DNA from: Polyangia bacterium
GTDB taxonomy: Bacteria; Myxococcota_A; Polyangia; JAAYKL01
Length of the DNA: 64,000 nucleotides
Direction of reading: 5' to 3'
Assembly: GCA_046484285.1 (NCBI GenBank)
Contig: JAWOBP010000186.1
Span: 10,178 to 74,177, forward strand
The notes under the pieces are model-generated. The model was not told where the DNA came from and ran no database searches. It worked only from the letters and a program-made list of their open reading frames with translations. Every line of letters starts with the position of its first letter. The stretch's first letter is position 1. A program made the translations under genes and the position numbers. Shown here piece by piece: positions 38,485-58,521 of the stretch.

Positions 38485-39399
38485 GTGGGAGGCTCCACTG
38501 CGCGACCTCTGGGCTCCGCCGCCGAGACGTTCACCGCTCTCGGCGGCGACGGGGTCGAGCTTCACTGCGAGAGGGTCGGAAGCGGTCCGCCGCTGCTGCT
38601 CAGCGACGGTCTGCTCTGCGAGGGGCACGTCTGGAAGTACCTCGTCCCAGAGCTCTTTTCGGACTGGGAGTGCCTGCACTGGCATTACCCGGGCCACGGC
38701 GAGTCCGCAGAGCCGCCGCCCTGGTCCGAGCTCTCACCCGAGAGGCTGGCCGACGACGCGGCGGCCGTGGCCGAGAGCGCCGGCGCCGAGAGCCTGGTGG
38801 CGGTGGGGCACAGCCTCGGCGTGCAGGTCTCGCTGGAGCTGTGGCACCGCCATCCCGAGCTGGTGCGAGCGCTGATCCTGGTCTGCGGCGCTCCGGGCAG
38901 GATTGTCGAGAGCTTTCATCAAAGCGCGTTGCTCGAGCACTTGATACCGCTGCTGGGAGTCGCGGCGCGCTTTCTTCCGGAGCAGACCTCGACGTTGTGG
39001 CGCAAGATACCGTTCGGCGCCCTGATGAGGCCCGCCCTGTTGACCGGAGAGGTCAATCCGCGCTTGGTTCGCACCCGCGATCTCGCCGACTACTTCGCGC
39101 GGTTGGGGCGAGTCGATTTTCGCGTCGCGCTGAGCCTGCTGGAGAGCTTCGGCCGCCACGACGCCACTCCTTACCTGGAGAGGATAGACGTTCCGACCCT
39201 GGTGGTGGCCGGCGCCGAAGACAGCTTTACCCCGCCGGCGCGCTCCAGTGAGATGGCGCGTGAGATACCGGGCGCCGAGTTGATGCTGGTTCCGGGCGGC
39301 ACGCACTCGCTGCCGATCGAGCGTCCCGAGCTGGTCAATCTCCGGATCGAGCGGTTCTTGAACGAGCGCCTCCCTTCCACCAACCGGCCACCCCGCTGA
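38485..39399 (+). CDS. alpha/beta-fold hydrolase
   Basis: GHSLG nucleophile elbow, HGESA, C-terminal DS...GGTH triad context; 3' end overlaps convergent helicase gene by approx 65 nt. Confidence 0.75.
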   Translation: MGGSTARPLGSAAETFTALGGDGVELHCERVGSGPPLLLSDGLLCEGHVWKYLVPELFSDWECLHWHYPGHGESAEPPPWSELSPERLADDAAAVAESAGAESLVAVGHSLGVQVSLELWHRHPELVRALILVCGAPGRIVESFHQSALLEHLIPLLGVAARFLPEQTSTLWRKIPFGALMRPALLTGEVNPRLVRTRDLADYFARLGRVDFRVALSLLESFGRHDATPYLERIDVPTLVVAGAEDSFTPPARSSEMAREIPGAELMLVPGGTHSLPIERPELVNLRIERFLNERLPSTNRPPR

Positions 39400-41287
39400 T
39401 CTCGTCGGTCACCGGACAGCTGGGCAGGGAGGCGAAGAACGTCCTGGCATACCCGCGCGATCGCAGCCTGCGGTCCAGCACGGCGACCACCCCGCGGTCC
39501 TTGCGTGATCGAATCAGTCGCCCGAAGCCCTGCTTGAGCGCCAGCGCGGCGCGGGGAAGCTGATAGTCGACGAACGGCCGACCGTCGTGCTCTGCGATGT
39601 GCTCGAGGCGGGCGGAGGTGATCGGATCCCCGGGAGGGTCGAACGGCAGCTTGTCGATCACCACCAGTCGCAGCGCGTCGCCCGGCAGGTCGACTCCCTG
39701 CCAGAAGCTGGTGGTGGCGACCAGCACCGAGCCGCGATCGGCGACGAAGCGCTCGAGCAGCACCGACTTGGGAGCCGAGCCCTGCACGAGCAGCGGGCCG
39801 GGTGTTCTGCCCTCCAGCCGCTCGTGGACGCCGCTCATGTTGCGCAGCGAGGTGCACAGCACCAGCGCGCCGCCGCCGGTGACCTCGATCAGGGCGGCCG
39901 CCTCGTCCGCGGCCTGATCGACGAACGCCGGCGATCGCGGATCATCGATCTCGTGCGGGATGTACAGACATGACTGGCTGCGGTAGTCGAACGGGGCGGG
40001 CAGCGAGATCTCCTCGACGTCGAAGTCGATGCCCAACCGCGACTCGAGGTAGTCGAAGTCCCCTCCTGTCGAGAGCGTGGCGCTGGTCAGCACCACCGCG
40101 GGTACGCGGAAGAAGACGCTTTCGCGCAGCCGCTCCGACACGTCGATCGGAGAGCAGCCCAGCACAGTGGAGCGCGGGCGGCGGTCGACCCAGTGGACCT
40201 GGCCCGGCTGCCGGGAGTCGAGAATCGTCGCCAGATCCCCGCGCAGGGCGACGTGGCGATCGGCGAGCTGGTCGAGGACCGCGTCGCGCCCCCTGTGCGT
40301 CTCGAGCGATAGCTGCAGCGCCTCGAGCGTGGAGTCCAGGCGGTGATAGGCGGCGCGGCAATTCTCGTCCAGGGCGCGCGGCTCCAGTGCGCTGCGTCCG
40401 GGCGACCGATTGCGGAAAAAACCGAACAGCGCCCTGGTCAGCGCGCGCGATTTTTCGATCGTCGCGACGCGCCGCGCGGCGTCCCGGTCGTCTTCCAACT
40501 CGGTTGCGTCGAGAGTCGCGCGCGTGTCGTCCAGCAGGCGCAGCACGCGCCCTGAGGGCACCTTGACGCTGAAGAACTCGGTGGCGATGTCCTCCACCAG
40601 GTGGGCCTCGTCCAGGATCAGGACGTCGTGCTCTGGAAGCAGGGTTCCTCCCCTCTCGCGCGTGGCGCAGTCCGCGAAGTAGAGGTGATGATTGACCACG
40701 ATCACCGAGGCCTGCATGGCCTGCTTGCGGGCGCGGGTCACGTGGCAGCTGTCGAACAAAGGGCAGCGCTGGCCGATGCGTGTCTCGCGAGTGGAGCAGA
40801 CCTCGCGCCAGAGAGGATCGTCGTCCGCCAGCGAGTCCAGCTCCATGCGGTCGCCGGAGGCGGTCTCCCCGCCCCAGGCGACCAGCCGCGCAACGTTCTC
40901 GGCGGGGTGCGCCAGCGACTTGGGCGAGTGCGAGAAGGCATGCAGGCGCCTGCGGCACAGGTAGTTGTCCTGTCCCTTGAGGTAGGCCGCGTCGACATCC
41001 ATCTCGAGCGCCTCGCCGATGAAGGCCAGGTCCTTGAAGAATATCTGCTCTTGCAGGTTGCGGGTTCCGGTAGAGACGATCGCCCGCAGCCCGGACAGGA
41101 TCGAGGGCAACAGGTAGGCCAGCGTCTTGCCGGTTCCGGTGCCTGCCTCGGCGAGCAGCACGCCGCCTCGCTCGATCGTCCTTTCGACCGCCAGCGCCAT
41201 CTCGACCTGTGCCGGGCGCGGCTCCCAGCGGGGATGCGAGGAGGCGATCGGGCCTTCTCGTGAAAAAATCTCGTCCAGCTCGCTCAA
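39335..41287 (-). CDS. dinG: ATP-dependent DNA helicase, DinG/Rad3 family
   Basis: 650 aa; AGTGTGKTLAYLLP (motif I), LILDEAHLVED (DEAH), C-terminal helicase_C_2 motifs (ATTSFWQGVDLPG, VVIDKLPF). Confidence 0.85.
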   Translation of the reverse strand: MSELDEIFSREGPIASSHPRWEPRPAQVEMALAVERTIERGGVLLAEAGTGTGKTLAYLLPSILSGLRAIVSTGTRNLQEQIFFKDLAFIGEALEMDVDAAYLKGQDNYLCRRRLHAFSHSPKSLAHPAENVARLVAWGGETASGDRMELDSLADDDPLWREVCSTRETRIGQRCPLFDSCHVTRARKQAMQASVIVVNHHLYFADCATRERGGTLLPEHDVLILDEAHLVEDIATEFFSVKVPSGRVLRLLDDTRATLDATELEDDRDAARRVATIEKSRALTRALFGFFRNRSPGRSALEPRALDENCRAAYHRLDSTLEALQLSLETHRGRDAVLDQLADRHVALRGDLATILDSRQPGQVHWVDRRPRSTVLGCSPIDVSERLRESVFFRVPAVVLTSATLSTGGDFDYLESRLGIDFDVEEISLPAPFDYRSQSCLYIPHEIDDPRSPAFVDQAADEAAALIEVTGGGALVLCTSLRNMSGVHERLEGRTPGPLLVQGSAPKSVLLERFVADRGSVLVATTSFWQGVDLPGDALRLVVIDKLPFDPPGDPITSARLEHIAEHDGRPFVDYQLPRAALALKQGFGRLIRSRKDRGVVAVLDRRLRSRGYARTFFASLPSCPVTDEISGVAGWWKGGARSRTARSGD

Positions 41288-41544: not shown

Positions 41545-41623
41545 CGGTCAATCTTTCACAGCGCAGGCGGTGAGACGAAAACAAAGGTGGATGCCGCAGA
41601 AATTTGACATGCCGACAAGATAT

Positions 41624-41639
41624 CTTACTATATAGTAAG
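41624..41639. promoter_or_regulatory. perfect 16-bp palindrome CTTACTATATAGTAAG in AT-rich leader (putative VapB operator)
   Basis: Read directly, 27 nt upstream of the vapB ATG inside an AT-rich stretch (41600-41665). Confidence 0.45.
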
Positions 41640-41665
41640 ACTTTTTTATTTGTAAGGAAGAGCAT

Positions 41666-41914
41666 ATGTCAGTAGCTACCATGACGAGCAAAGGGCAGAT
41701 AACGGTACCTCGGGCGATCCGAAAGCGACTGGGTTTGAGGCCCGGTGACAGGCTGGATTTCGTGATCGAGCGGGACGGCAGGATCCTGATCAACCCCGAG
41801 AACAAGCGATTGGAGGATGTTTTCGGTCTTCTCGCTCATCGGGCGGGGCGCGCCGTGTCGGTGGAGGAGATGGACGAGCGTGTGGCCGCGCGAATGCGCG
41901 AGGATAGGCAGTGA
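41666..41914 (+). CDS. vapB: AbrB/MazE/SpoVT-family antitoxin (VapB-like)
   Basis: MSVATMTSKGQITVPRAIRKRLGLRPGDRLDFV (swapped-hairpin signature). Confidence 0.75.
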   Translation: MSVATMTSKGQITVPRAIRKRLGLRPGDRLDFVIERDGRILINPENKRLEDVFGLLAHRAGRAVSVEEMDERVAARMREDRQ

Positions 41915-42315
41915 AGGCTCTCGATACCAACATTCTGGTTCGCCTCCTCCTCGACGACGATCCGGCTCAGAGCAAGACGGTTCGTCGTCTGTTCCAGACG
42001 GCGGAGCAAAACCGATCGAAGCTGCTCGTTTGCGATCTGGTGGTGCTCGAGCTGATCTGGGTGCTCGAGGCGGTGTACGGTTGCACGAGAGACGAGGTGG
42101 TCTCGGCCCTGGAGAGCCTTCTTTCGTTGGCGGTCCTGGAGTTCGAGCACGCGGACAGGTTACGCGAGCTCGGCTTGTTGGCCAGACAAGAGAAGACAGA
42201 GCTGGCGGACCTGCTGCTAGGGATTGCCGGCAGGCATGCCGGGGGTGAGACGACGCTCACATTCGACAAGCGCGCGAGTCGGTCCGAGCTCTTTGCCGCC
42301 GCCTCTTCCGGATGA
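41911..42315 (+). CDS. vapC: PIN-domain toxin (VapC-like)
   Basis: MKALDTNILVRLLLDDD...; ATGA-type overlap with vapB. Confidence 0.8.
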   Translation: MKALDTNILVRLLLDDDPAQSKTVRRLFQTAEQNRSKLLVCDLVVLELIWVLEAVYGCTRDEVVSALESLLSLAVLEFEHADRLRELGLLARQEKTELADLLLGIAGRHAGGETTLTFDKRASRSELFAAASSG

Positions 42316-42394
42316 AGGCGAACCGTTCTTGCAAGTCGGAGCTTGACGTTCAACGAGCTTTGAGGCTATTGGCCGGTGTTGCTCTTTTTCAATT

Positions 42395-42590
42395 TTTGCC
42401 GTCGGGCAAGGGTGGATAACCGCCCTGGGAAGCCGGTGCGAATCCGGCGCGGCCCCCGCCACTGTGACCGGGGACGAAAACGGCGAGACCACTGGACGGA
42501 AACCATCGCTCGAGCGGGTGGGCCGTCTGGGAAGGCGCCGCGAGTAGGACGATCCGGAAGCCAGGAGACCTGCTCGTCGGCACCTCGAGT
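42395..42590 (+). ncRNA. cobalamin (B12) riboswitch
   Basis: Contains hallmark blocks GGGAAGCCGGTGCGAATCCGGCGCGGCCCCCGCCACTGTGA, GGGAAGGCG and B12 box GCCAGGAGACCTGC; lies in the 5' leader of 42733 gene. Confidence 0.8.
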
Positions 42591-42732
42591 CCGCGGGGTG
42601 TGCGGCTTCACGGTTCCCCGGCGTCGTCCTTGGAAGCGGCGTCCGAGACGCTCTCTTGCAGGTTCGAGGAAAAACCAGCCCGGCTCCGGTGCGGGATACG
42701 GGCGAAAGAGAGGGGAACCCGGAGGTGCTTCC

Positions 42733-43080
42733 ATGAAGACTCAAAAGCTGTTCCTGTTTTCGTTGCTGATGATGCTGGCGGTCACCGCTGCCGCCTGCTC
42801 GGACGACGACGACGACGACGGTTCCGGTTCCGACGCGGACACCGACGCGGACACCGACGCGGACACCGACGCGGACACGGACGCGGACACGGACACCGAC
42901 ACGGACACCGACACGGACACCGACACCGACACGGACACGGACACCGACACCGACACGGACACGGACACCGACACCGATACGGACACGGACACCGACACGG
43001 ACACCGACACCGATACGGACACGGACACCGACACCGATACGGACACGGACACCGACACCGATGGCGACGCCGGACCGTAA
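42733..43080 (+). CDS. mini-lipoprotein consisting of lipobox plus (Asp-Thr/Asp-Ala)n tail only
   Basis: MKTQKLFLFSLLMMLAVTAAAC-SDDDDDDGSGS(DADT)n(DTDT)n...GDAGP; GGAGGT RBS; downstream of B12 riboswitch. Confidence 0.55.
   Translation: MKTQKLFLFSLLMMLAVTAAACSDDDDDDGSGSDADTDADTDADTDADTDADTDTDTDTDTDTDTDTDTDTDTDTDTDTDTDTDTDTDTDTDTDTDTDTDTDTDTDTDTDGDAGP
42826..43070. repeat. tandem 12-bp-periodic GACACC/GACGCG/GACACG repeat (coding for DT/DA repeats)
   Basis: Read directly; same repeat family recurs at 48780-48960, 54610-54800, 60240-60330. Confidence 0.8.
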
Positions 43081-43167
43081 CCCGGTAGCAGATTGATTGA
43101 TGAGACCGAAGGGCGAGGCGATCGATGATCGCCTCGCCTTTTTTCTCCCGGGCCGATTTCTCTAGCG

Positions 43168-44616
43168 ATGAGAATGCGCCGACTCGATAGCTTTCGCCTC
43201 GAGCTGAGGCGGCGAGGCTCGATGAAGACCGGTGCCCTGGTCTATCTCCACGAGCGGATGGAACCGGAGCGCGAGGCATTGTCGCAGCTTTGCGACGCCG
43301 CCTCGCTGGACGGGGAGGCGATCGTGCTGGCAACTCCGGATATCCACACCGGGTACGGAGTCCCGATCGGCTCGGTGATCGCCTCTCCGAGCCTGATCTC
43401 GCCGGCGGCCGTGGGTTACGACGTGAGCTGCGGAATGCGGCTCTTACTATCGCCGCTCGACGCCGTGGAAGCTCCGTTCGGAGAGATCTGCCGCGCGATC
43501 AGAGAAGAGCTGCCTCTGGGCGAGGGGAAACGCAACAGGCGTTTCGAGCTGAAAGAGCGCCAGCTGAAGCTGGTTCTGGAGCGGGGGGTGGCCGGGCTGG
43601 TCGACGTGACCGCGAATGACGCCGAGCTGGCGCGAGTGGTCGACCCGGAGAGGACCGGGATCGACAGGCGTCGAATCGAGGACGGCGGAGCGCTGGAAGG
43701 AGAGCCTGGCGAGGTGTCGTCGAGGGCCGTTCGGCGGGGGCTGTCCCAACTCGGCACGCTGGGGGGCGGCAATCATTTCGTCGAGATACAAAAAGTGGAG
43801 GAGCTGCCGGACGAGTCGGCCGGGCGAGCGCTGGGCATGCGCCAGGGACAGCTGGCGGTCATGATCCACACCGGATCGAGGGGGCTCGGTCACCAGGTCG
43901 CCGGCGATCACATGCGAATCGCGAACGACGCGGCCGGGCGCTACGGGATTCCCCGGCCCAGTCGCCAGCTCTCCTGCATGCCGGCCGACTCGCCGGAGGG
44001 GATCGCCTACCTCGGCGCGATGCGGGCCGCCGCCAACTTCGCCTCGGCCAACAGGCAGGTGATAGCCGAGATCGTGCGCGGTGCTTTCGCGCGGGTCCTG
44101 GAGAGCCGGGCCGGGCTGAGCACGGTCTACGACGTCTCGCACAACGTGGCCAAGCGCGAGAAGCACGGCGGGCGGTGGTTGTACGTGCATCGCAAGGGGG
44201 CGACCCGCGCCTTTCCGCCGGCACGGATGCGCGGATCGGACTTCGCGCGAATTGGACAGCCGGTGCTCGTGCCCGGGTCGATGGGCACGGCGAGCTACGT
44301 GCTGCTTCCCGGCGAGCGGGTCGACGAGTCGCTGTGCTCGGTCAACCACGGCGCGGGCCGAGCGATGAGCAGAACGGCGGCGGCGGGCAAGATTCGCAGG
44401 CGCGATGGCAAGGTGATCCGTCCGGGAGCGATTTCGCAGAGCCGTTTTCGAGAGTCGATGCGCGGTGTTTACTTGGAATGCGAGGACCGGCGAGCGATAG
44501 TGGAGGAGGCGCCGGATGCCTACAAGGACATCGACTTGGTGGTCGAGACCGTCGAGGGCGCCGGGCTGGGAAGAGCCGTGGCGCGGCTGGTGCCGTTGGG
44601 AGTGTTGAAGGGCTGA
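43168..44616 (+). CDS. rtcB: RNA-splicing ligase RtcB
   Basis: 482 aa; ATPDIHTGYGVPIGSV, GGGNHFVEIQ, SVNHGAGR motifs; start may be internal Met at 43222. Confidence 0.85.
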   Translation: MRMRRLDSFRLELRRRGSMKTGALVYLHERMEPEREALSQLCDAASLDGEAIVLATPDIHTGYGVPIGSVIASPSLISPAAVGYDVSCGMRLLLSPLDAVEAPFGEICRAIREELPLGEGKRNRRFELKERQLKLVLERGVAGLVDVTANDAELARVVDPERTGIDRRRIEDGGALEGEPGEVSSRAVRRGLSQLGTLGGGNHFVEIQKVEELPDESAGRALGMRQGQLAVMIHTGSRGLGHQVAGDHMRIANDAAGRYGIPRPSRQLSCMPADSPEGIAYLGAMRAAANFASANRQVIAEIVRGAFARVLESRAGLSTVYDVSHNVAKREKHGGRWLYVHRKGATRAFPPARMRGSDFARIGQPVLVPGSMGTASYVLLPGERVDESLCSVNHGAGRAMSRTAAAGKIRRRDGKVIRPGAISQSRFRESMRGVYLECEDRRAIVEEAPDAYKDIDLVVETVEGAGLGRAVARLVPLGVLKG

Positions 44617-45491
44617 TGAAGACCTACATCGAGTGTGTTCCGTGCATCGTCGAGCAGGCCGTGGAGGCCCCGCGTCGTTTCACCGGGGACGAGCAGCTGA
44701 TCGAGCGCGTCGTCAAGCGGACGATCGCCGAGCTGGTCGATTTCGATTTCGCGCGTTCTCCTCCCGAGATGGGCGGGGTGCTGCACCGCATCATGTCCGA
44801 CGAGTTGGGCGACGAGGATCCCTACCTGGAAGACAAGCGGCGCGCCAACCGCCTGGCGATCGAGCTGCTGCCCGAGCTGAGGAGGTTCGTCGAGAGCGCC
44901 GACGATCCGTTCGAGGCCGCGGTGCGGTTGGCGATCGCCGGGAACGTGATCGACTTCGGCGCTCCGGGCGGGCTGCGCGACGATCGGATCGAGTTGGCCT
45001 TCCGCGACACGGCCGACGTTTTGCTGCGCGGGGACGGCGCGGCCGGCGTGGAGCGTCTGCGCCGGCAGGCCGCGCGGGCCGAGAGGATCTTGTTCCTGGC
45101 CGACAACGCCGGCGAGATCGTGGTCGACCGTCTCTTGATCGAGCGGTTTCCCCGGGGCAGCGTGACCGTCGTGGTGCGCTCGGGGCCTGCGATCAACGAC
45201 GCGTTGCTCGAGGATGCCGAGCAGGCGGGGTTGGGCGAGGTGGCCGAGGTGATCGAGAGCGGAGCGGATCTGCCGGGGACTCCGCTTGCGTTCTGCTCCG
45301 CGGATCTGCGCGAGAGGTTCGCCGCGGCCGATTTGGTCGTCTCCAAGGGGCAGGGCAACTACGAGACCCTCTCGGACGAGCAGCGCCGGATGTTCTTCCT
45401 GCTGCGCGCCAAGTGCCCGGTGGTCGCAGGTCACATGAGCTGCGAGGTCGGGGATTACGCGGTGGCGGAGTTTCCCAGGAGCGAAAGATGA
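44616..45491 (+). CDS. DUF89 / ARMT1-like (damage-control phosphatase family) protein
   Basis: MKTYIECVPCIVEQ..., LADNAGEIVVDRLL, VSKGQGNYETL motifs typical of DUF89; TGATG overlap with rtcB stop. Confidence 0.6.
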   Translation: MKTYIECVPCIVEQAVEAPRRFTGDEQLIERVVKRTIAELVDFDFARSPPEMGGVLHRIMSDELGDEDPYLEDKRRANRLAIELLPELRRFVESADDPFEAAVRLAIAGNVIDFGAPGGLRDDRIELAFRDTADVLLRGDGAAGVERLRRQAARAERILFLADNAGEIVVDRLLIERFPRGSVTVVVRSGPAINDALLEDAEQAGLGEVAEVIESGADLPGTPLAFCSADLRERFAAADLVVSKGQGNYETLSDEQRRMFFLLRAKCPVVAGHMSCEVGDYAVAEFPRSER

Positions 45492-45655
45492 GCGGAATCT
45501 TCAACGTGATCGTGGGCTTGATCATGCTGGTGGGAGGGCTGTCGGGCAGGCTGGCTTTCTTCGGCACGAGCAGCTCCGGGATCCTGGCCGCGGTCGGAGT
45601 GGTGGTCACCGGGGTGGGGGTCTACCAGCTGGTCAAGAGTCGCCGGGGGCGATAG
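45488..45655 (+). CDS. small two-TM membrane protein, hypothetical
   Basis: MSGIFNVIVGLIMLVGGLSGRLAFFGTSSSGILAAVGVVVTGVGVYQLVKSRRGR; ATGA overlap with previous gene. Confidence 0.35.
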   Translation: MSGIFNVIVGLIMLVGGLSGRLAFFGTSSSGILAAVGVVVTGVGVYQLVKSRRGR

Positions 45656-45710
45656 ACTCGCCACCCCGAGCCCTGATGGCCTTACTACTGCTGCTGATCT
45701 TACCCCCTAA

Positions 45711-46562
45711 ACGGATCGCGTTGGCGCCTGGCTGGCCAAGAGCCTCGAGGAGCACGGCGACGGGATCGAGCTTTTCGCCTTCATCTTCCTGTCCAACCAC
45801 TTCCACCTGCTGCTGCGCGACACCAAGGGGCAGCTGGCCGAGTTCATGTACTACTTCCAGCTCAACCTGGCCAAGTCGGTCAACGAGCTGCTGGGCCGCC
45901 GCGGCCACTTCTTCGCTCGAAAGTACGACGCGGCGCCGGTGCTGACCGACGAGGACTTCGAGAACCGCTGGGCCTACATCGCGACCAACGCGGTCAAGGC
46001 CGGGCTGGTGGAGCGGGCGTCGTCGGGGCCGTTCTTCTCCTCGCTCGGGATGGCGCTCGACGGCAAGCCGCGCTCTTTCGAGTGGACGGACCGCACCGCG
46101 CTTCACAACCGGAGCCGTCGGGGCCAGCGGGTTGGTCGCGAGGAGGTGACGAGGAGGTACTCGCTCGAGCTGACGGTGCCGCCGCAGTGGCGCAAGCTGA
46201 GCAAGCGAGCGAGGCGGGAGCGGATGAAGGGTCTGGTCAGGGCCAACGAGGTACGCTACGGCCGCGAGCGTCGCGCCGAGGGTCGGAGCGTTCTGGGAGC
46301 GCGGCGAGTGTTGGAGCAGTCGCCGCTGATGCGACCGCGCAATCCTTCTCGCAGCCCGCGGGTCAAGGTGTTCTGCCGCGACCGGGAGCTGGAGGCAGCG
46401 CATCTTGAGATGGAGAAACAGACGGCGGGCCTGTACCGCGAGGAGCTCGGAGCGTTTCTCAAAGCGGCGCTGATGGGCAGGCGCACGCCTGCAGACTGGC
46501 CGCCGGGTACGTACCCGCCGTCCTCGCTGTGGCCGGTGGGCGCCCCGGCGGCGCCCTGCTGA
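45711..46562 (+). mobile_element. IS200/IS605-like (Y1, HuH) transposase gene, 5'-truncated remnant
   Basis: Frame opens right after an in-frame TAA (45708-45710) with no start codon; contains HuH motif LSNHFHLLL and conserved downstream region but lacks the usual approx 50-aa N-terminal part. Confidence 0.55.
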
Positions 46563-47724: not shown

Positions 47725-49041
47725 TCAGTCGACCGGCACGGAGGGACAGCCGAACTTGGCCGAGATCGTGTCGACGAAGCCGCCCTGGATTTCGGCGCAG
47801 GCATCCTCGCAGAAGGTGATCTCGGTGTGCTCTGCGTTGGCCCAGGTCCAGCCCGTGCCCACCAGGCAGTCCGGGTCGTAGGGGACCACGTCGCCGTCGA
47901 AGTAGAAATTGACGTTGTCCGGGTCGGCCGAGGCGTCGGGCTCGTCGAGTTCGAAGGTGCAGCTGATGATGCTGGCCGCGATCGTGTCCAGCGCGTTCTC
48001 CAGCGCGGCCTGGTCGAGCGCCTCGACGAACGAGGTGAACTGGGTGCCGCCCGCGGCCGCGATCGCGTTCAGCGCGGTCTCGTCGGCGTTCTCGGTGTAG
48101 CCGATCACCATCGTCTTGATCCCCGCGGTCAGCAGCGACTCGGTGCGATCGCTGAGCTCGTCGACCCAGCTGTTGGAACAGCTGTAGTTGCCCGAGGGGC
48201 CGCAGCAGTCGTCGCCGTCGGCCACGACCAGCAGGTAGGGATCGCCGGGCTGGGCGTCGGTGGTGAAGTTGGGCGCGTAGCTCGGATCGTCGAGCAGCTT
48301 GTCCATCTCCATCACCAGCGGATCCCCCGAGCCGGACTGCGGCGCGTGGGTGTCGAGCCAGCCGGAGATCGCGCTCTCCTGGCCCGCGGCGGTGTCGAAC
48401 CAGACCGGGTTGTCCACCGAGCAGCTCTGCGAGTACCAGTCGTCCGGGTAGGAGTCGAAGCCGAACAGGAAGTTGTCGGCGTAGTCGACCAGCCAGCTCT
48501 GGATCGCGGCTCTGGCGTGGTCGTACTTGGACGACGGGATCACCATCGAGCCGGACATGTCGAGCAGGATCATCAGCTTGACCGGTACGTACTCGATCGC
48601 GAAATCCTGCTCCGAGCAGACGGTGTCGGTGTCCGGCGTGACGTCGATCTCGTCGGTCTGCCCGTCGCAGTCGTCGTCCTCGCCGTTGTAGGGATCTTCC
48701 TGGGCGCCGGGGTGTTGATCCGGATCGTCGTCGTCGCAGTCGAAGTCGGCGCACCACCAGTCGCCGTCCTGGTCCACGCAATCCGGATCCGAGTCGCTGT
48801 CCGCGTCGGAATCGGAATCAGCGTCGGAGTCGGCGTCGGAGTCTCCGTCCGCGTCGGTATCTGAATCGGAATCAGCGTCGGAATCGGCGTCCGAGTCTCC
48901 GTCCGCGTCCGTGTCGGCATCGGAATCGGAATCGGCGTCCGCGTCCGTGTCCGTATCGGCGGGCTGATAGTCCGCGTCGCCGTTTTCGCAGGCGGCCGCG
49001 AGCAGAGCAACAGAGAACATCACCATTGGTCGTGAGATCAT
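47725..49041 (-). CDS. VWA-domain lipoprotein with Asp-rich repeat linker and Cys/Asp-rich (calcium-binding-like) module
   Basis: Lipobox LLAAAC; (DSDA/DTDA)n linker; DQDGDWW.. Cys-Asp module; MIDAS-like [11 protein letters not shown]. Confidence 0.7.
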
Positions 49042-51471: not shown

Positions 51472-53037
51472 TCAGGTTCCGGTCACCGGGTCGACCACGT
51501 AGCGCCTCAGCTCGTTGGTGCGGGGGTGGATCATGTGGATCGCGCAGGCCAGGCAGGGATCGAAGGAGCGCACCACGCGCACCACGTTGATCGGGTTGTC
51601 CGTGTCGGGCACCGGGATCCCGATCAGCGACTCCTCGTATTGCCCGCGCACCCCGGACTCGTCGCGCGGAGAGGCGTTCCAGGTGGAGGGCACCACCGCC
51701 TGGTAGCGCTTGGTCTTGCCGCCCTCGATCGTTATCCAGTGACCGAGCGCGCCGCGCGGAGCGTCGTAGAAGCCGGCTCCCTCGCCCTTGTCCGGCGGAT
51801 CCCAGTGCTGCGTGTCGTGGATTTCGAAGCCCTTCTTGCCCATCTGGGATTCGAGCTGGTCGAGCCAGCCCTGCATCGCCTCGACCAGCAGCAGGTTCTC
51901 GAAGGCGCGGCTGGCGTGGCGCGCCACCACGCCCGGCTTGGCGCCTTTCTCGACCAGGCCCATCAGGTCCTTGTTCTTCATCACCAGCATCCGTGCCAGG
52001 GGACCGACCTCCATCGGCTTTCCGTCGTAGCGCGGCGCCTTGACGAAGCTGTAGGCGTTCTCCCTGTCGCGGTTGACTTCCTGCGTTCCCCGCGAGGGGT
52101 GGACCGGGTCCGCCTCCTCGTACCAGGCGTGCTCCACCGACTCGGTGATCTTCTTCTGATCGAACTTCCCTATCTTGGCCAGATCGCCGGTGATCACGCC
52201 CGGAGTGAAGAACGGATCGCCGCCGTCCTTCTGGTCGAACGCTCCGTAGGCCAGGTAGTTGGGATGTCCCTTGCCGAAGCCACTTTTTGCCAGCCCGAAG
52301 AGCGGGCCGGTGCCCAGCGCCACGACGTCCTTGGCGTAGACGTCGCGGGTGAAGGCGGCCGCCTTTGCGAGCAGCTCGCGGAACTGCTTGATCCGATCCT
52401 TGGTCGGGAGCTGGGTCACGCCGCCGGGCACGATGCTCTGGTAGTGCGGTGCGCGCCCGCCGAAGATCGCGCCCATCTTCTTGCAGAGCATCTGCATCTC
52501 GAGTGCGTCGAGGTAGTGCTTGACCAGCGTGGTGACCGTCTCCGGGTCCTTGACGCAGTGCTCGTCGGGCTCGTAGCGCGGCGTGAGCGGATGGGTGTCC
52601 TTGCTCTCGACCAGCGCGACGATCTTTTTCTTGACCGCCTCGAGCTTGGGATCCTTGCCCTTGTAGTCGGCGACCGCCATCACGTCGATGTAGTCGAGCG
52701 CCGAGAGGTGGTAGAAGTGCAGGATGTGGTCGTAGAGGTACTGGGCGCCCATCACCAGGTTGCGCAGCAGGCGTCCACCGCTCGGCACCTCGGCGCCGAA
52801 CGCCGAGTCGAGCGCCAGCGAGGACGCCATCGTGTGCACGCTGAAGCAGACGCCGCAAAAGCGGCTGGTCACGTAGGCGGCGTCGCGAGGATCCTTGCCT
52901 TCCAGCATCTTCTCGAAGCCGCGGTACATCGTGCCACTGCTCCAGGCGTCCTTGACCTTGCCGTCCTCCACCTCGACCTCAATGCGGAGATGGCCCTCGA
53001 TGCGCGTTACGGGGTCGATTGCGATCTTCTGGCTCAT
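51472..53037 (-). CDS. [NiFe] hydrogenase large subunit
   Basis: N-terminal SRFCGVCFSVH (RxCGxC) and C-terminal DPCLACAIH nickel-binding motifs; ATGA overlap with small subunit. Confidence 0.9.
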   Translation of the reverse strand: MSQKIAIDPVTRIEGHLRIEVEVEDGKVKDAWSSGTMYRGFEKMLEGKDPRDAAYVTSRFCGVCFSVHTMASSLALDSAFGAEVPSGGRLLRNLVMGAQYLYDHILHFYHLSALDYIDVMAVADYKGKDPKLEAVKKKIVALVESKDTHPLTPRYEPDEHCVKDPETVTTLVKHYLDALEMQMLCKKMGAIFGGRAPHYQSIVPGGVTQLPTKDRIKQFRELLAKAAAFTRDVYAKDVVALGTGPLFGLAKSGFGKGHPNYLAYGAFDQKDGGDPFFTPGVITGDLAKIGKFDQKKITESVEHAWYEEADPVHPSRGTQEVNRDRENAYSFVKAPRYDGKPMEVGPLARMLVMKNKDLMGLVEKGAKPGVVARHASRAFENLLLVEAMQGWLDQLESQMGKKGFEIHDTQHWDPPDKGEGAGFYDAPRGALGHWITIEGGKTKRYQAVVPSTWNASPRDESGVRGQYEESLIGIPVPDTDNPINVVRVVRSFDPCLACAIHMIHPRTNELRRYVVDPVTGT

Positions 53038-54050
53038 GCCGCACTCTCCTTCTTGTTGTTGATGAGATGAAGGTTATTCGCGTACAGCGGCGAGTGTTTC
53101 TCGTAGAAGGTCGGCTCGGCGCATCCCTGGCACGGAGAGCCGCACTCGATGCAGTAGTTGACGCCCCCGTTGTACTTCCTGGTTGGGCAGTCCGAGTAGG
53201 TCTCGCCTCCCTTGCAGCCCTTCTCGGCCAGGCACCACTCGGCCTGCTTGGGGTCGTTCCAGTCTTGCAGGTAGTTGCCCTCGTCGTAGTGCTTCTTGCG
53301 CTCGCACTGGTCGTGGATCGTCTTGGCGTAGAACATCTTGGGCCGGCCGTGCTCGTCCAGCGGCGGCGCCTTTTCGTTGGTCAGGTAGTAGACCAGGGTC
53401 TGCACCAGGTGATCGTGGTGTGCCGGGCACATCGGCAGGTTGATCACCGGCTTGTCCTTCACCATCTGGTTCACGCCCATTCCGCGGCTCGGCGTGGCGC
53501 CCGGAATGCCGCCGTAGGTCGCGCAGGCTCCGAGGGCCACGATCGCCGAGGCCTGCTCGGCGCACTCGAGCACGATCTTCTCGAAGGGCTTGCCGCCCAC
53601 CGTGCAGAAGCGGTCGTCGGCGCCGGGGATCGATCCCTCGACCACCAGGATGTAGCCGCCCTCGGCCAGCGTGTTTTCCAGCGCCTTCTCGCTGACGTGA
53701 CCGGAGGCGGCCATCACCGCCTCGTGGTAGCGAAGCGAGATCTTGTCCAGCAGGATCTCGGCGATCGGCGGGTCCTCGGCATTGAGGAACGAGATGCTGC
53801 AACCCGCGCAGTCCTGCCCCTGGAGCCAGATCACCGGCGGCTTGCCCGCGGCCTTCTCCAGCTTCTCGGCCACCTTCTCGGCGCTCGGGCCTTTCTTCTT
53901 CTCGTCGCCCGGCGCGCCCTCATCGTCGCCTCCGCAACCGACTAGCGCCAGCGATCCGGCCAGCCCGCCGCAGTAGTAGAGGAAGTCCCGCCGCGAGACA
54001 GAGCCGAAGACCAGCTTTTCACCGTCGTGCTCTTTTTTCTTGCGCCCCAT
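53034..54050 (-). CDS. [NiFe] hydrogenase small subunit with Tat signal peptide
   Basis: SRRDFLYYCGGLAGSLALVGC twin-arginine leader; FeS-cluster Cys ligands (GCSISF..., CIECGSPCQGC). Confidence 0.85.
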   Translation of the reverse strand: MGRKKKEHDGEKLVFGSVSRRDFLYYCGGLAGSLALVGCGGDDEGAPGDEKKKGPSAEKVAEKLEKAAGKPPVIWLQGQDCAGCSISFLNAEDPPIAEILLDKISLRYHEAVMAASGHVSEKALENTLAEGGYILVVEGSIPGADDRFCTVGGKPFEKIVLECAEQASAIVALGACATYGGIPGATPSRGMGVNQMVKDKPVINLPMCPAHHDHLVQTLVYYLTNEKAPPLDEHGRPKMFYAKTIHDQCERKKHYDEGNYLQDWNDPKQAEWCLAEKGCKGGETYSDCPTRKYNGGVNYCIECGSPCQGCAEPTFYEKHSPLYANNLHLINNKKESAA

Positions 54051-54139
54051 CTTTTTTCCTCCCGTGCGTCATTGTAGCTGTGTAGCTGTTCGTCGCTCAC
54101 CAGTAATAATAGATGGCAAGCACTATAGTATACAATTGT

Positions 54140-54190
54140 GAAAAATGAAACAGGAGAATGCGAGCCTTGCCCGGGCTGCTTGCGAGGAAG
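54140..54190 (-). terminator. candidate rho-independent terminator after lipoprotein gene / before hydrogenase promoter
   Basis: Minus-strand GC-rich inverted repeat (gcccgggc core) followed by U-rich tract (plus strand gaaaaatgaaa); sits in 170-nt AT-rich gap. Confidence 0.3.
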
Positions 54191-54219
54191 TGTAACAGGC
54201 TTGAGATAAAGAGTTTTTT

Positions 54220-54900
54220 TTACATCGGCATGTTCATGTTGAAGTCGATGCTGACCCCGGAGACATCGTTTCCGTCGTAGGTGAACTCCGGGCACTGGCC
54301 GGTGCCGAAGGCGACCGGGTCGCCCTGAGCCGGGCCGTCCGTGCTGCAGTCTCCGCCGGCCTCCTGCAGGAAGCCCGAAACCACGTAGGCCTCGTCCACG
54401 GTCAGCGCCTGCATGACGATGAACTCCATGTCGAACGGCTCGGGACCGCCTCCGGACAGGTCGAAGCCGGTCTCCTGGCCGCCGGCGAAGGTGGTGATCT
54501 GTCCCATGTTGGACATCGCGGGGCACTCGTCCGAGATCGCCAGGCAGAGAGTGCCGACTCCGTCTCCGCCGCTCGGGATGTCGGCGGACTGCGAGACCGT
54601 GCCCGAGACGTTGATTGTATCGAGCCAGGTTCCGGTCTCGGTGTCGGAGTCCGCGTCGGTGTCTGTGTCGGCGTCGGAGTCCGCGTCTGTGTCGGCGTCG
54701 GAGTCCGCGTCGGTGTCCGCATCGGCGTCGGTGTCGGCGTCGGTATCGGCGTCCGAGTCCGAGTCCGAGTCCGAGTCGGTGTCCGAGTCGGTGTCCGCGT
54801 CGGTACCGCCGCCGCTGTCGTCGTCGCCGCAGGTCGCGGTCCCGAGGGCGCACAGCGCCACGATTGCCAGCAGGGTGATCGATTTGGAGAGAATCTTCAT
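54220..54900 (-). CDS. lipoprotein with (Asp-Thr/Asp-Ser/Asp-Ala)n linker and C-terminal Cys-containing domain of unknown function
   Basis: [32 protein letters not shown](TDAD..)n; strong RBS GGAAGGAGGCGGAAG before ATG. Confidence 0.55.
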
Positions 54901-54983
54901 CTTCCGCCTCCTTCCATGGTGTTCACGGCCATTGTGAGTCTTTTTGATGAGAAGTACACCTTGAGACAAAAAAGGACGGACGA

Positions 54984-56045
54984 TCAGTGGGTATGGCAGA
55001 TGCGGCACATCTTGTGCGAGGTGCGCTCGCCGGCCGGAACGGGCGGGGTCCAGCCCGGAGGGTGCGGGTCGACGCCGCCGGTGCTGTGGCAGCGCAGACA
55101 GTTGGAGGCCGGGCCCTGGTCGTGGCAGGCGGCGCACTCGTTGATCCTGCGGCGCGCGGCCCTGCTGTGCGAGTCGGCCGCGCCCGGCGTCATCCAGCTC
55201 GGCGGATGCGGGTTGCGTCGGCCGAGCCGGCCGCCGACGCCGTGCTGCTCGTGGCACGAGGAGCACGACGATCTGCCGTGGCACTTCATGCAGCTCGTAT
55301 CGCCGGTCCGCGCCTCGAGCGAGTGGCGCGTCATCCAGTCGCCCTGGTGCATGAAGCTGCGGTCCACGCGCTCTGGAAAGCGCAGCGAGGGACGCTGGGT
55401 CATCGTGCGGGCGTGGCAATCGGCGCAGTAGGCCTGGTCGTGGCAGACCGCGCAGGTCTGCTCGCCGCCGGCCGCGGCCCTGGCGCCGTGGCGATCGAAG
55501 AAGCCCTTCTCGTGCGAGTAGATCTCGCCCGACGGCACGCGCTGGTAGAGGTCGAGGCGGTGGTGGCAAAGCTTGCAGTCGCCGGAATCGAGATCATCCT
55601 GGTGGCAGGTATTGCACTCGACGTGGCCGGGCAGCAGGCGGTTCTCCGGGGTAACGTCCACCGCGTGGGCGGCGTCGCCGTGGCAGTCGGCGCAGTCTCC
55701 CGAGCGCTCCTGGTGGAGCTGGTGCGAGAAGACCAGGTGCGTGGGCTCGAGCCGATCGTAGCTGTCGGGAGCGTCGGTGTTGGTGTGGCAGGTGCCGCAT
55801 TCCTCGGCGCTCTCCACGTCGTGGCAGTCCGCGCAGCCGGACATCGCGGGCAGCGCCTCGGCCTCGCGATCGACGTCCTCGGCGATCCCGGCGTGGCAGT
55901 AGTCGCAGTCGACCCCCATCTCGGAGTGCACGTGGTGGGAGAACAGGATCGTGTCCGGGGCGTCGCTGGTGGCCGCCGAGCACGCCACCACCGCGGCCGT
56001 GACGGCCGAGAGCAGCAGTCCCTTGTTGCGCGAGAGTCTTGTCAT
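54984..56045 (-). CDS. multihaem cytochrome c lipoprotein (13 CxxCH motifs)
   Basis: [22 protein letters not shown] lipobox; CDYCH, CADCH, CGTCH, CADCH, CNTCH, CKLCH, CAVCH, CADCH, CMKCH, CSSCH, CAACH, CLRCH, CRICH. Confidence 0.75.
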
Positions 56046-57574
56046 TGCTCGTACCCCCGCTCGACGAAGTTCACGTCGAAGTTGTAGCTGAGCTTTAGCA
56101 TTCCGCGGACCTCGTGCTCGGCGTAGGGAGTGATGCCGGCCGCCACCGAGCCGCCGGTCTCGATGGTCCCGTTGCCGTAGAACAGCCCCACGTCGCCCAG
56201 AAAGCCCAGGTCGGTGTTTTCGATCTTCTGGTCGTAGAGATCGAGATAGGCGTTGGCCGCTGCCCGCAGGCCGGGCAGGGCGATCGGCACGATCGCTCCC
56301 AGCCGCAGCGAGTGGGCACCCAGCTCGTCCTGTCCCAGGCGGTGGTAGTCGAGCCGCACCAGCCCGTCGTTCCTTTCTCCGTAGCGCAGCAGCGCGCCCG
56401 CTTCGATGTCGTAGCCCAGCTCGGTCTCGGCGCCGTACCCGCTGGAGCTCCCAGCGTCGAAGCGCTCCTCGACGTAGCTGTAGAAACGATGGTGATATCC
56501 GGCCGAGAAGCTCAGCCAGGCGAGCGGGTCGACCCGCACGGCGCCGCCCACCGAGTCGTACTCCTCCATCGAAAACACAGAGAAGATTGACATCTTGGAC
56601 AGGTAGAGGGTCGGATCCGCGTGCCGGTAGTCTGCGGCGATCGAGACCATCTCGTGAGGATAGAGGTCGACCGCGAAGTTCGCCTCCTGGAGGCGCTTGG
56701 CCACCAGGTCGAGCGCCGCGTTGCCGCTGGCGCCCAGCCAGCTGAGCGGAGTCACGTCGAGGTCGACGCCGAGCAGCTGCCTGTCTATTTCGTCGAGCTC
56801 GGTGACGTGCAGCATCGAGACGCCGGCCGAGATCTTGCCTGTCATGCGGTAGAAGACGCGGCCGCCGACCGCGTAGTCGCCCTCGCGCTCCCAGTCGCTC
56901 AGGCCTCCGCCGAAGTCGCCGTAGCTCGGGTTGGCCGGCTGCTCGCGGTACCACTCGGGTCCGAGGTAGGGAGAGACGACCAGCCCGCCGTGCGCCTCGA
57001 TCCCGAGGTGGATCGGCGATTCGTACGAGGCGTAGAGGCCGTCGATGTGCAATCCGCGCGTGGCGCCGGTGTAGATCTGCTGGCGACCCAGCCGGACGTC
57101 GGCCCCGTAGTCCCTGAACTGCACGTAGAGGTAGGTCGGGTCGGCGACCGCCCGCTGATCGAAATACACGTCGGCCAGATCGACTCCGGCCCACCCCTGG
57201 AAGTGGACCGACAGGCCCGGGTGACCCAGCTCGTCTGCGCGCAGCTGAACGGTCTCGTAGAAGGGGAAGACCTTCATCGACCGCACGCCGTAGGCGCCGC
57301 CGCCCAGGTTGCGCATCCGGGCGCGCCGGGTGAAGAACATCTCCGAGCGCAGGCTGCCCGAGACCATCGGCCTGGGAGCGTCCGGGTCGTAGGGCTCGGG
57401 CTCGACCTCGGGAGGATCGGAAGCCGGGTCGACCTCGTCGCCGCCGTCTTCGCCTTCGGCGTCGCCGGTCTCTTCCGTCGCCGCCTCTTCTGTCTCTTCC
57501 TCGTCTTCCGCCTGGGCAAAGACCGAGCCCGGGGACGCGACGAGCAGGCCGATGGAAATCAAAACGGCGCGCAC
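56042..57574 (-). CDS. outer-membrane beta-barrel (porin-like) protein with acidic N-terminal extension
   Basis: Signal peptide MRAVLISIGLLVASPGSVFAQA; Glu/Asp-rich approx 60 aa then beta-strand-rich body ending ...NFVERGYEQ; 4-nt overlap with cytochrome gene. Confidence 0.6.
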   Translation of the reverse strand: MRAVLISIGLLVASPGSVFAQAEDEEETEEAATEETGDAEGEDGGDEVDPASDPPEVEPEPYDPDAPRPMVSGSLRSEMFFTRRARMRNLGGGAYGVRSMKVFPFYETVQLRADELGHPGLSVHFQGWAGVDLADVYFDQRAVADPTYLYVQFRDYGADVRLGRQQIYTGATRGLHIDGLYASYESPIHLGIEAHGGLVVSPYLGPEWYREQPANPSYGDFGGGLSDWEREGDYAVGGRVFYRMTGKISAGVSMLHVTELDEIDRQLLGVDLDVTPLSWLGASGNAALDLVAKRLQEANFAVDLYPHEMVSIAADYRHADPTLYLSKMSIFSVFSMEEYDSVGGAVRVDPLAWLSFSAGYHHRFYSYVEERFDAGSSSGYGAETELGYDIEAGALLRYGERNDGLVRLDYHRLGQDELGAHSLRLGAIVPIALPGLRAAANAYLDLYDQKIENTDLGFLGDVGLFYGNGTIETGGSVAAGITPYAEHEVRGMLKLSYNFDVNFVERGYEQ

Positions 57575-57575
57575 G

Positions 57576-58145
57576 TCACACTCCTCCGTCGCCGGACGCG
57601 AGGTCCACGTTGCCGTTGAGGTGGATCTCGGAGCTCAGTCCGCCGTCCAGGTAGGCCGAGGCGTGGCAGCTCGCGCAAGCCGAGTCGTCGGGGTGCGGAT
57701 CGAGCGGGGGCAGCCCGTGGCAGTCGCCGCACGAGACCTGCTCGGTGTCGTCCCAGCGGGGCGCCGGGTTGCTTCCGCCGCTCAGCGTCCCGCCGTGGCA
57801 GTAGACGTTCACGCAGCTAGCACCGTCGAAGTACGGCTCGGCTCCGCCGGCCGTGGCCAGGCCGCCGTCGGCGAACACGACGTCGACCACCGCGTCGAGG
57901 TGATCCTGGGAGAACCACTCACCGGGAATCCGGTGGCAGTCCTCGCAGGTCATGCCCGGAGCGCCGAACGGGCCGCCGGTGCTCATGTGGAGCTGATGGG
58001 CTCCGGAATCGGGGTTCATCGAGTGGCACATCTCGCAACCGTCTCCGCCCGCGTCGCCCTCGTCGTCCCTGACTTGCAGGCAGGAAGTCGAGGCAATGCA
58101 TATCAATGCGATCGGTACCAAGCGCCATTGCTTTTCGGGGATCAT
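57576..58145 (-). CDS. secreted/lipoprotein multihaem cytochrome c (about 5 haem sites)
   Basis: MIPEKQWRLVPIALICIASTSC leader; CEMCH, CEDCH, CHGG, CGDCH, CASCH. Confidence 0.6.
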   Translation of the reverse strand: MIPEKQWRLVPIALICIASTSCLQVRDDEGDAGGDGCEMCHSMNPDSGAHQLHMSTGGPFGAPGMTCEDCHRIPGEWFSQDHLDAVVDVVFADGGLATAGGAEPYFDGASCVNVYCHGGTLSGGSNPAPRWDDTEQVSCGDCHGLPPLDPHPDDSACASCHASAYLDGGLSSEIHLNGNVDLASGDGGV

Positions 58146-58441
58146 CGGCCGGGACCTCCTGGGGCTTCGACCCGCGTGTAAACGCCGGTCTCTGACTGAT
58201 TTCTCCAGAGCGTCAACGCATGTTTTTTTTGTAACGGAGCACCGAACCGGGGCGAGTGTCGCCAATCCAGGCCACAAAATCAAGAGCTTGCTGACAAAAA
58301 GGGCAATATCAAACTGACTGAACGAAAACTAAAGATACAAATTCAATGTATACCATAAAAGTGCTGAATAGCCCATTCTATATTACACCAAACTACTGCT
58401 ATATAAGTTGTTGTCAATTGGCCAGTTTTTTACTTGAATTG

Positions 58442-58480
58442 ATAGCCTAGCGGCTATAAAAAAGGCGTGTCTTGTGACAC
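58442..58480. promoter_or_regulatory. two adjacent palindromes (ATAGCC-N4-GGCTAT and GTGTC-N4-GACAC) in AT-rich divergent control region
   Basis: Read directly, 40-80 nt upstream of the 58522 cytochrome gene; surrounding 58290-58520 is conspicuously AT-rich. Confidence 0.3.
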
Positions 58481-58521
58481 GGGTAACAATTCCGGTATCG
58501 ACTCGATTCTCGGAGATCGAA

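Follow-up and report, generated by a model that had tools for sequence, protein, structure and literature searches.

A cobalamin riboswitch that probably remains attached to the domain-less stump of a lipoprotein gene in a Polyangia genome

In Escherichia coli, the leader of btuB, which encodes an exported envelope protein, contains a full-length cobalamin (B12) riboswitch aptamer with its B12 box and an expression platform that sequesters the Shine-Dalgarno (SD) sequence; the usual targets of cobalamin riboswitches are transporter, biosynthetic, or B12-independent isozyme genes. Riboswitch-regulated surface lipoproteins that bind B12 are known from Bacteroides (BtuG, BtuH, BtuJ1/J2 with DUF4465, and BtuK; PMC12751083; PMC13398666). 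Disordered N-terminal linkers are normal in Gram-negative lipoproteins and relevant to their Lol sorting, and in RcsF, Pal, and NlpD such a segment directly follows the lipidated Cys and tethers a folded domain (bioRxiv 10.1101/2021.01.05.425367). Here we analyzed a stretch of 64,000 nucleotides from a Polyangia bacterium (assembly GCA_046484285.1, contig JAWOBP010000186.1, positions 10,178 to 74,177 of the forward strand; hereafter the window), in which a cobalamin riboswitch lies in the leader of a 115-aa open reading frame (ORF) that encodes a putative signal peptide, a lipobox, and an Asp-Thr tail, followed by the genes for RtcB and a DUF89 protein. All positions refer to the window unless a metagenomic locus is named.

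The locus resembles the btuB leader in its full-length aptamer, its B12 box, its position ahead of a gene for an exported envelope protein, and its probable SD-sequestering platform, although the ON and OFF structures were derived here from four sequences only. In contrast to the usual targets of such riboswitches, the gene downstream appears to be that of a truncated lipoprotein. Its full-length relatives, which we found at the syntenic site of two metagenomic relatives (L085 and L086) and in 31 further loci, fit accessory envelope lipoproteins that would be induced at B12 scarcity, like those of Bacteroides. Unlike the latter, they show no sequence relationship to Btu lipoproteins (Pfam including DUF4465, PDB), most of their loci look monocistronic with no adjacent btuB or btuCDF, and the neighbors are a toxin-antitoxin pair and RtcB in the window and SmpB and DinG in L085 and L086; the window copy carries no domain at all, and a B12 role of the family is only a candidate one. 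Like the linkers of RcsF, Pal, and NlpD, the tail is a disordered segment directly past the lipidated Cys, but no domain comes after it, and it is exceptionally acidic and repetitive. We consider it probable, though far from settled, that a canonical B12 riboswitch is here still attached to the signal-peptide and linker stump of a B12-regulated lipoprotein gene. The ancestral gene would have lost its domain-coding part, with the riboswitch, the signal peptide, and the linker remaining; what is in the relatives a tether carrying domains would in the window be a tether without cargo. We take the window product for a remnant, still under B12 regulation, that most likely has no function or at best a residual one. 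The unit comprises the following features:

42387..42591, + strand: cobalamin riboswitch aptamer (RF00174), full length (cmscan; orthologous aptamers of L085 and L086).
42580..42732, + strand: expression platform (alignment of four orthologous leaders; pairing analysis).
42733..42798, + strand: putative signal peptide and lipobox (MKTQKLFLFSLLMMLAVTAAAC; Cys22 codon at 42796-42798; sequence inspection).
42799..43080, + strand: acidic disordered tail, probably the ancestral lipoprotein linker, with the stop codon directly after it (Tandem Repeats Finder (TRF), composition, AlphaFold2, comparison with orthologues).
43108..43144, + strand: intrinsic terminator ending the riboswitch-controlled unit (folding; conservation in a sister species).

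A first-pass annotation, made from the sequence alone, had described a textbook B12 riboswitch in the leader of the ORF, and the Infernal/Rfam scan that it called for bears this out. The aptamer was found by cmscan at 42387-42591 (+) with a significant score of 96.5 bits (gathering score 31.5, E 8e-23), the match spans the full length of the RF00174 model (positions 1-189/189), and this is the sole Rfam hit that cmscan gave across the 64 kb of the window. The cmscan alignment contains all conserved core motifs, among them the B12 box (AGCCAGGAGACCUGC) and every motif quoted in the annotation, and a single core change is specific to the window (ACUGUGA vs. the consensus ACUGUAA). The 3' end of the aptamer lies 141 nt from the ATG of the 115-aa ORF, on the same strand. 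The aptamers at the syntenic site of L085 (96.7 bits) and L086 (92.9 bits) both align with that of the window, and the riboswitch is, by its sequence, an ordinary member of RF00174.

The ORF extends from the ATG at 42733 to the TAA at 43080 (+), and its 115-aa product has the layout MKTQKLFLFSLLMMLAVTAAAC followed by SDDDDDDGSGS(DADT)5(DT)n..GDAGP. By inspection, the n-region of the putative signal peptide contributes K2 and K5; a hydrophobic core follows, and the lipobox would read A-A-A-C22, in which the Ala at -3 is non-canonical but allowed under relaxed patterns (orthologues have CSAC, VTGC, and ALGC); the start codon and the first codons (ATGAAGAC) align with those of L085. The tail after Cys22 contains 93 residues (46 Asp, 33 Thr, 6 Ala, 4 Gly, 3 Ser, and 1 Pro), encoded largely by a tandem repeat at 42830-43058 with a period of 12/18 (TRF), and the ORF stops 5 codons past this repeat. 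Its 36 repeat units vary at synonymous third positions in the D-T frame (ACC 17 and ACG 19 for Thr, GAC 33 and GAT 3 for Asp), the only other variation being in the first four DADT units, where Ala replaces Thr. AlphaFold2 gave no secondary structure for the 115-aa product (pLDDT 57, pTM 0.12), and Pfam returned for it only low-complexity matches far below threshold (PARP, 20 bits vs. a cutoff of 100), so that composition, Pfam, and AlphaFold2 agree with the earlier description of a lipobox and an Asp/Thr tail without a folded domain. The pre-protein would be exported and lipidated at Cys22, leaving a disordered chain of 93 residues with a net charge of about -46 anchored in the envelope.

An Asp-Thr stretch of this kind is not peculiar to the riboswitch-controlled gene. 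Three further lipoproteins of the window share the same layout of Cys, poly-Asp, Gly/Ser, and a DA/DT/DS repeat, each with a folded C-terminal part after it:

47725-49041, - strand: lipoprotein with DA/DT/DS linker (repeat and ORF layout).
~54220-54880, - strand: lipoprotein with DA/DT/DS linker (repeat and ORF layout).
60144-61250, + strand: lipoprotein with DA/DT/DS linker and two rhodanese domains (repeat layout and Pfam).

A database search with the 115-aa product returned 986 significant proteins, mostly from metagenome-assembled genomes of Myxococcota or Deltaproteobacteria. Among the best 120 of these 986 matches, all 120 continue past the acidic repeat that follows their signal peptide and lipobox, by no fewer than 16 and usually by 40-130 residues, and none is a linker-only protein. 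An exact look-up of the 115-aa product had no match on record. Judging from these layouts, the Asp-Thr tail is an ordinary lipoprotein tether of this Polyangia lineage and a habit of this genome; since the stretch is normally followed by a C-terminal part, the anomaly is a linker with nothing after it.

What has probably been lost can be seen in the two syntenic loci. Using as anchor the divergently oriented DinG-like helicase at 39335-41287 (-), which is 63% identical to its counterpart in L085 and 61% to that in L086, the gene order from ExbB to DinG was found to be collinear between the window and both relatives, and a cobalamin riboswitch lies in L085 and L086 at exactly the corresponding site, beside a small ORF and DinG. 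The aptamer, the leader blocks, the SD (GGGGAACCGGAGG), and the start codon align with those of the window, and the genes downstream are full-length:

L085, 8424-9314, - strand: full-length two-domain lipoprotein, downstream of the riboswitch.
L086, 8387-9304, - strand: full-length two-domain lipoprotein, downstream of the riboswitch.

Their products begin with a signal peptide and a lipobox Cys, continue with poly-Asp and a (DT)n linker of 56-63 residues, and then carry two tandem copies of a domain of ~105 aa with the motifs GxYxDxWGxxHxI, AQNDxxNxYNPDLWSRFDWT, LYYCQTAYDA, and ADxSDPxxGGCGGFAWT. Synteny with the window ends right after the linker, and none of the genes that follow the full-length lipoprotein in L085 and L086 (a 97-aa ORF, SmpB, a phosphoribosyltransferase, and others) is present in the window. 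A search for the domain by tblastn in all six frames of the window gave nothing better than E = 1, and hence neither a remnant nor a second copy; because the domain was not detected, we regard the window gene as a truncated derivative and not as a full member of the family.

Searching metagenomes with a profile of the domain yielded the 31 further loci (L087-L117), from varied metagenomes, in which the lipoprotein carries one or two copies with the core signature NPDLWSRFDW ... YCQ ... GCGGFAW and two invariant Cys. RF00174 lies upstream on the same strand in 21 of the 31; of the ten loci where it was not found, six are cut too close to the gene and four are still negative at a lax threshold. 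With L085 and L086 included, the riboswitch thus precedes the domain gene in 23 of 27 informative loci (33 family members minus the six cut too close upstream). The linker, in contrast, may have as few as 5 or more than 240 residues across the 33 members, some of which have DT/DA repeats and others Pro/Thr-, Gly/Ala-, or Cys-rich sequences, and measures 34-63 aa in the closest orthologues vs. 93 aa for the tail in the window. Since the domain is constant and linked to the riboswitch while the linker is hypervariable, the domain is the element associated with B12, and it is a candidate part of a corrinoid-related envelope protein, presumably the working part in the relatives. These comparisons also bear on the first-pass annotation, which had proposed that the polyanionic tail captures a cation or a corrinoid and had called for a search for riboswitch-lipoprotein pairs in related genomes. 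Such pairs do exist, in L085 and L086, but with two domains after the linker; the proposed capturing role is unsupported, the tail being a generic linker that is followed in the orthologues by two copies of a folded domain and that varies in length and composition across the 33 members where the domain does not.

Directly 3' of the aptamer, an anti-SD segment (GCACCUC, 42580-42586) complements GAGGUGC (42722-42728), the stretch that holds the SD (GGAGG at 42721-42725, with a spacing of 7 nt to the ATG), and a flanking helix pairs GGUUCCCC with GGGGAACC (42612-42619 with 42712-42719), its counterpart in L085 being GGUCCCC/GGGGACC. In the four orthologous leaders, the anti-SD:SD and flanking helices are 89% paired, as opposed to at most 62% in slid registers, and one pair of the anti-SD:SD helix covaries between A-U and G-C, in two sequences vs. 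two, the statistical power being low. A mutually exclusive local hairpin (CACCUCG/CGGGGUG, 42581-42587 with 42594-42600) is 96% paired across the orthologues, and the CGGGG of its strand also complements the L5 loop of the aptamer (CCCCG). In L085, L086, and L087, the minimum free energy structure has the SD paired with the anti-SD. The window additionally has a 10-nt insertion in the platform (42623-42632), absent from these three, which adds pairing options (GGAAGC/GCUUCC) around the SD and the start codon; its SD is mostly paired (P(unpaired) 0.14-0.20), and its folding is ambiguous, since both modelled states leave the SD largely unexposed and the insertion adds competing pairings. No terminator was found in the leader by sequence inspection and a terminator scan, although the scanner also missed the terminator after the ORF, which was confirmed by folding. 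The expression platform is therefore likely to be an SD-sequestering helix rather than a leader terminator; of the two folds that the first-pass annotation had put forward for this region, the helix is supported and the terminator was not found. Because the thermodynamic folding of the window platform is ambiguous, the assignment of ON and OFF rests on the comparative helix and is marked as inferred. The four sequences are suggestive of a translational OFF switch that sequesters the SD upon B12 binding: with B12 bound, the anti-SD segment 3' of the aptamer would be freed and pair with the SD, blocking translation, and when B12 is scarce this segment would be held in the local hairpin, leaving the SD free. 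A DNA pattern specific to the leader had no matches in metagenome contigs, in a search that did not recover L085 and L086 themselves.

Downstream, the gap between the 115-aa ORF and RtcB measures 87 nt (a nucleotide less than annotated) and holds a terminator that had been overlooked. Its hairpin (43112-43138, loop GAT) has a G+C-rich stem of 12 bp, or 16 bp with A-U extensions, followed by T6 at 43139-43144, and folds with -40.4 kcal/mol (z = -3.9; none of 200 shuffles as good). In a sister species known from metagenomic contigs, the hairpin is identical except for one loop base, within a surrounding spacer that cannot be aligned with the window. The three genes behind it follow as annotated, joined by overlapping stops and starts of the ATGA type:

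43168-44616, + strand: RtcB (PF01139, E 4e-130).
44616-45491, + strand: ARMT1/DUF89 phosphatase (PF01937, E 8e-66).
45488-45655, + strand: 55-aa membrane ORF (ATGA-type overlap).

The block 43155-45656 is 92% identical in nucleotides to that of the sister species (L081). RtcB from either start codon had no match in an exact look-up, but cluster membership led to the NCBI record MFO8073687.1, from a Polyangia metagenome-assembled genome, which is identical to the RtcB of the window read from the second ATG (43222; 464 aa) instead of from 43168 (482 aa); because the 18 additional N-terminal residues (MRMRRLDSFRLELRRRGS) are conserved in L081 and in a more distant RtcB locus (L002), the 482-aa protein is probably correct and 43168 the start. 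This places the RtcB ATG 23 nt from the end of the T-run at 43144. When window positions 43145-43167 are compared with L081 (~190-268), 49 nt of the spacer between terminator and RtcB are missing in the window, which therefore offers no obvious room for an RtcB promoter past the terminator. The earlier suggestion that RtcB and DUF89 belong to the B12-repressed transcript is mostly unsupported: a strong and conserved terminator stands between them, the more distant RtcB locus L002 has no riboswitch, and in L085 and L086 the riboswitch unit is not adjacent to RtcB. The RtcB/DUF89 block is most simply read as a separate unit behind the terminator and its membership in the B12 unit is unlikely, although with a spacing of 23 nt some read-through into RtcB may occur.

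The sister species also dates the truncation. Its RtcB and DinG are 92% identical in protein to those of the window, and seven of its contigs from several samples (L001, L081-L083, and L118-L120) show a DT repeat ending "...DTDTDAD*", a spacer, the same hairpin, a T-run, and RtcB, all seven breaking inside the DT repeat. As this arrangement is shared, the truncation predates the split of the two species, whose divergence at fourfold sites is K4 = 0.19-0.25, i.e., ~0.1 substitutions/site per lineage. Since DT linkers follow lipoboxes in all of the best 120 database matches, the DT-ending protein of the sister species is almost certainly a linker-only lipoprotein as well. On the other side of the locus, no riboswitch lies on the DinG contig of the sister species (L084), where the neighboring gene differs, and synteny with the window ends at 41567. 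Between the DinG-side syntenic block and the riboswitch, the window carries an inserted toxin-antitoxin pair:

41666..42315, + strand: MazE/AbrB-type antitoxin and PIN toxin pair (Pfam; absent from L085 and L086).

Where synteny breaks at 41567, the sister species has a C-terminal fragment of a DnaE2-like polymerase, and window positions 41567-42315 look like a rearrangement hotspot. A further difference between the two species lies past the 55-aa ORF.

Several observations weigh against a mere remnant. The score of the aptamer equals those of the intact orthologues, with no decay seen, and it has at most one window-specific change in ~60 near-invariant core positions, where neutrality at ~0.1 substitutions/site would lead to ~20 changes in the aptamer and ~6 in the core (Poisson P ~0.02); the SD, the start codon, the signal peptide, and the lipobox are intact, the terminator is conserved, and the truncation is common to species at K4 = 0.19-0.25. 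The no-decay argument is based on ~60 sites and one sister species, whose riboswitch side lies outside all seven contigs. From the undecayed aptamer and the intact SD, signal peptide, and terminator it follows that the unit may still be used, either because its product acts as a polyanionic lipopeptide repressed by B12 or because it affects RtcB. Selection might thus have kept a linker-only lipoprotein as a B12-repressed, lipid-anchored polyanion that concentrates, e.g., Co2+ or conditions the envelope. Consistent with this, the truncated unit is intact in all the parts just listed and shared by two species (K4 ~0.2), the tail (93 aa) exceeds in length the linkers of the closest orthologues (34-63 aa), and the repeat units differ from one another only synonymously in the D-T frame. 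The tail itself, however, has no tie to B12, given that the linkers of the family vary from 5 to >240 residues and are in part non-acidic, that the same linker occurs on unrelated lipoproteins such as the rhodanese one, and that none of the best 120 matches is linker-only; moreover, the synonymous pattern could be ancestral, and slippage by 6 nt preserves the frame anyway. With the few sites and the single sister species behind the no-decay argument, we regard such selection as unlikely, albeit deserving some weight, and we hold it to be no more likely that the domain-less Asp-Thr lipopeptide was kept through speciation for a use of its own (concentration of cobalt or divalent cations, conditioning of the envelope). 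If true, the origin of the retained lipopeptide would lie in a family of lipoproteins under cobalamin riboswitch control that had not been described before.

The riboswitch could instead have been retained as it governs RtcB-DUF89 through terminator read-through or coupling, making RNA-repair genes B12-responsive. The short distance from the T-run to the RtcB ATG, the 49 nt missing relative to the sister species, and the conserved N-terminal extension that fixes 43168 as the start would all fit, but the terminator is strong (12-16 bp G+C-rich stem and T6) and conserved, the spacer of ~70 nt in the sister species is able to hold a promoter, the distant locus L002 has RtcB without a riboswitch, and we know of no link between RtcB and B12; this appears very unlikely to us. 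The join itself might be an assembly chimera of two DT repeats, in which case the true target of the riboswitch would be a full-length two-domain lipoprotein and another DT-ending gene would lie before RtcB. Such a join is conceivable because the repeat is impassable for short-read assemblers: every one of the seven short-read contigs from the sister species ends within it, L118 begins (positions 1-40) with the DT repeat in reverse complement fused to its forward copy (an assembler artefact), DT repeats recur in the genome, and the synteny with L085 and L086 stops exactly after the linker. We nevertheless give it only a slim chance, as the 117 kb contig runs through at least three further DA/DT/DS repeats of the window with intact domain-bearing ORFs as the outcome, and the sister species independently shows an ORF ending after a DT repeat upstream of RtcB, so that a linker-ending protein exists either way. 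Finally, the ORF could be untranslated and the riboswitch control a non-coding RNA of ~700 nt, by analogy to EutX and Rli55, small RNAs controlled by B12 riboswitches, with the ACGGA-rich (GACACS)n repeat acting as a protein or RNA sponge. The unit is indeed self-contained (riboswitch, ~490 nt, terminator) and the repeat holds ~19 ACG-GAC junctions; yet the SD is good, the ATG has a genuine coding start as its orthologue, the signal peptide and the lipobox are intact, the repeat varies synonymously in the D-T frame only, and the expression platform acts on the SD, all of which makes this barely credible. A riboswitch left on the stump of a lipoprotein gene therefore remains the explanation that we prefer, and an intact riboswitch on a domain-less gene in two species would amount to a small natural experiment on the persistence of orphaned riboswitches.

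The new lead lies outside the window, in the riboswitch-linked family of lipoprotein domains of ~105 aa, which has no relative in Pfam or PDB: neither the domain of the orthologues nor any of 43 domain copies matched Pfam, a profile of the 43 sequences gave only noise against PDB sequences, and none of the 365 proteins returned by the database searches contains the domain. Outside Bacteroidota, the family may represent a new kind of envelope protein that is related to corrinoids and perhaps binds them. Of the 43 copies, 34 weakly match NCBIfam NF047669 (LIC13354 family exoprotein, Leptospira) in the C-terminal half of the model (best E 3e-7); their scores of 17-27 bits fall far short of the cutoff of 130, and the domains are not members of that family. 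For LIC13354, a hypothetical protein that is uncharacterised, PMC3953431 gives no B12 link, and a connection between LIC13354 and the cobalamin riboswitch in Leptospira, which we considered, is unsupported by this paper, although it mentions both. As for the linker, an acidic dipeptide repeat anchored in the membrane or wall is also found in the trypanosome procyclins (EP/GPEET) and the staphylococcal Ser-Asp repeat proteins (Clf/Sdr), and models of the MSCRAMM SD-repeat match the linkers of the orthologues weakly, compositionally, and below cutoff, as the PARP model does the window ORF (20 bits); unlike a homologous relationship, the resemblance to procyclins and Clf/Sdr is one of composition, far below every cutoff. 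In Clf/Sdr, the repeat is the stalk for a ligand-binding domain, a part that is missing in the window protein.

Three loci of the family have features of their own in the neighborhood of the lipoprotein gene. In L103 (300-2844), the riboswitch is followed by a 492-aa ORF without a Pfam match and then by the lipoprotein, and in L092 (2957-3397) an ORF with a Rieske domain begins 8 nt past the lipoprotein; both are possible operon partners. In L095, an Acido-Lenti-1 RNA (RF01687, 46.8 bits vs. a gathering score of 37) lies at 3452-3496 (-), just downstream of the lipoprotein gene.

Elsewhere in the window, an ORF at 45846-46562 had been guessed to be a transposase; it has no Pfam match and no claim is made for it. 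The region ~53034-60069 contains CxxCH-rich ORFs (~54984-57194 -, 57576-58283 -, and 58825-60069 +), and beside them the ORF at 53034-54050 (-) resembles a hydrogenase small subunit, both judged by eye.

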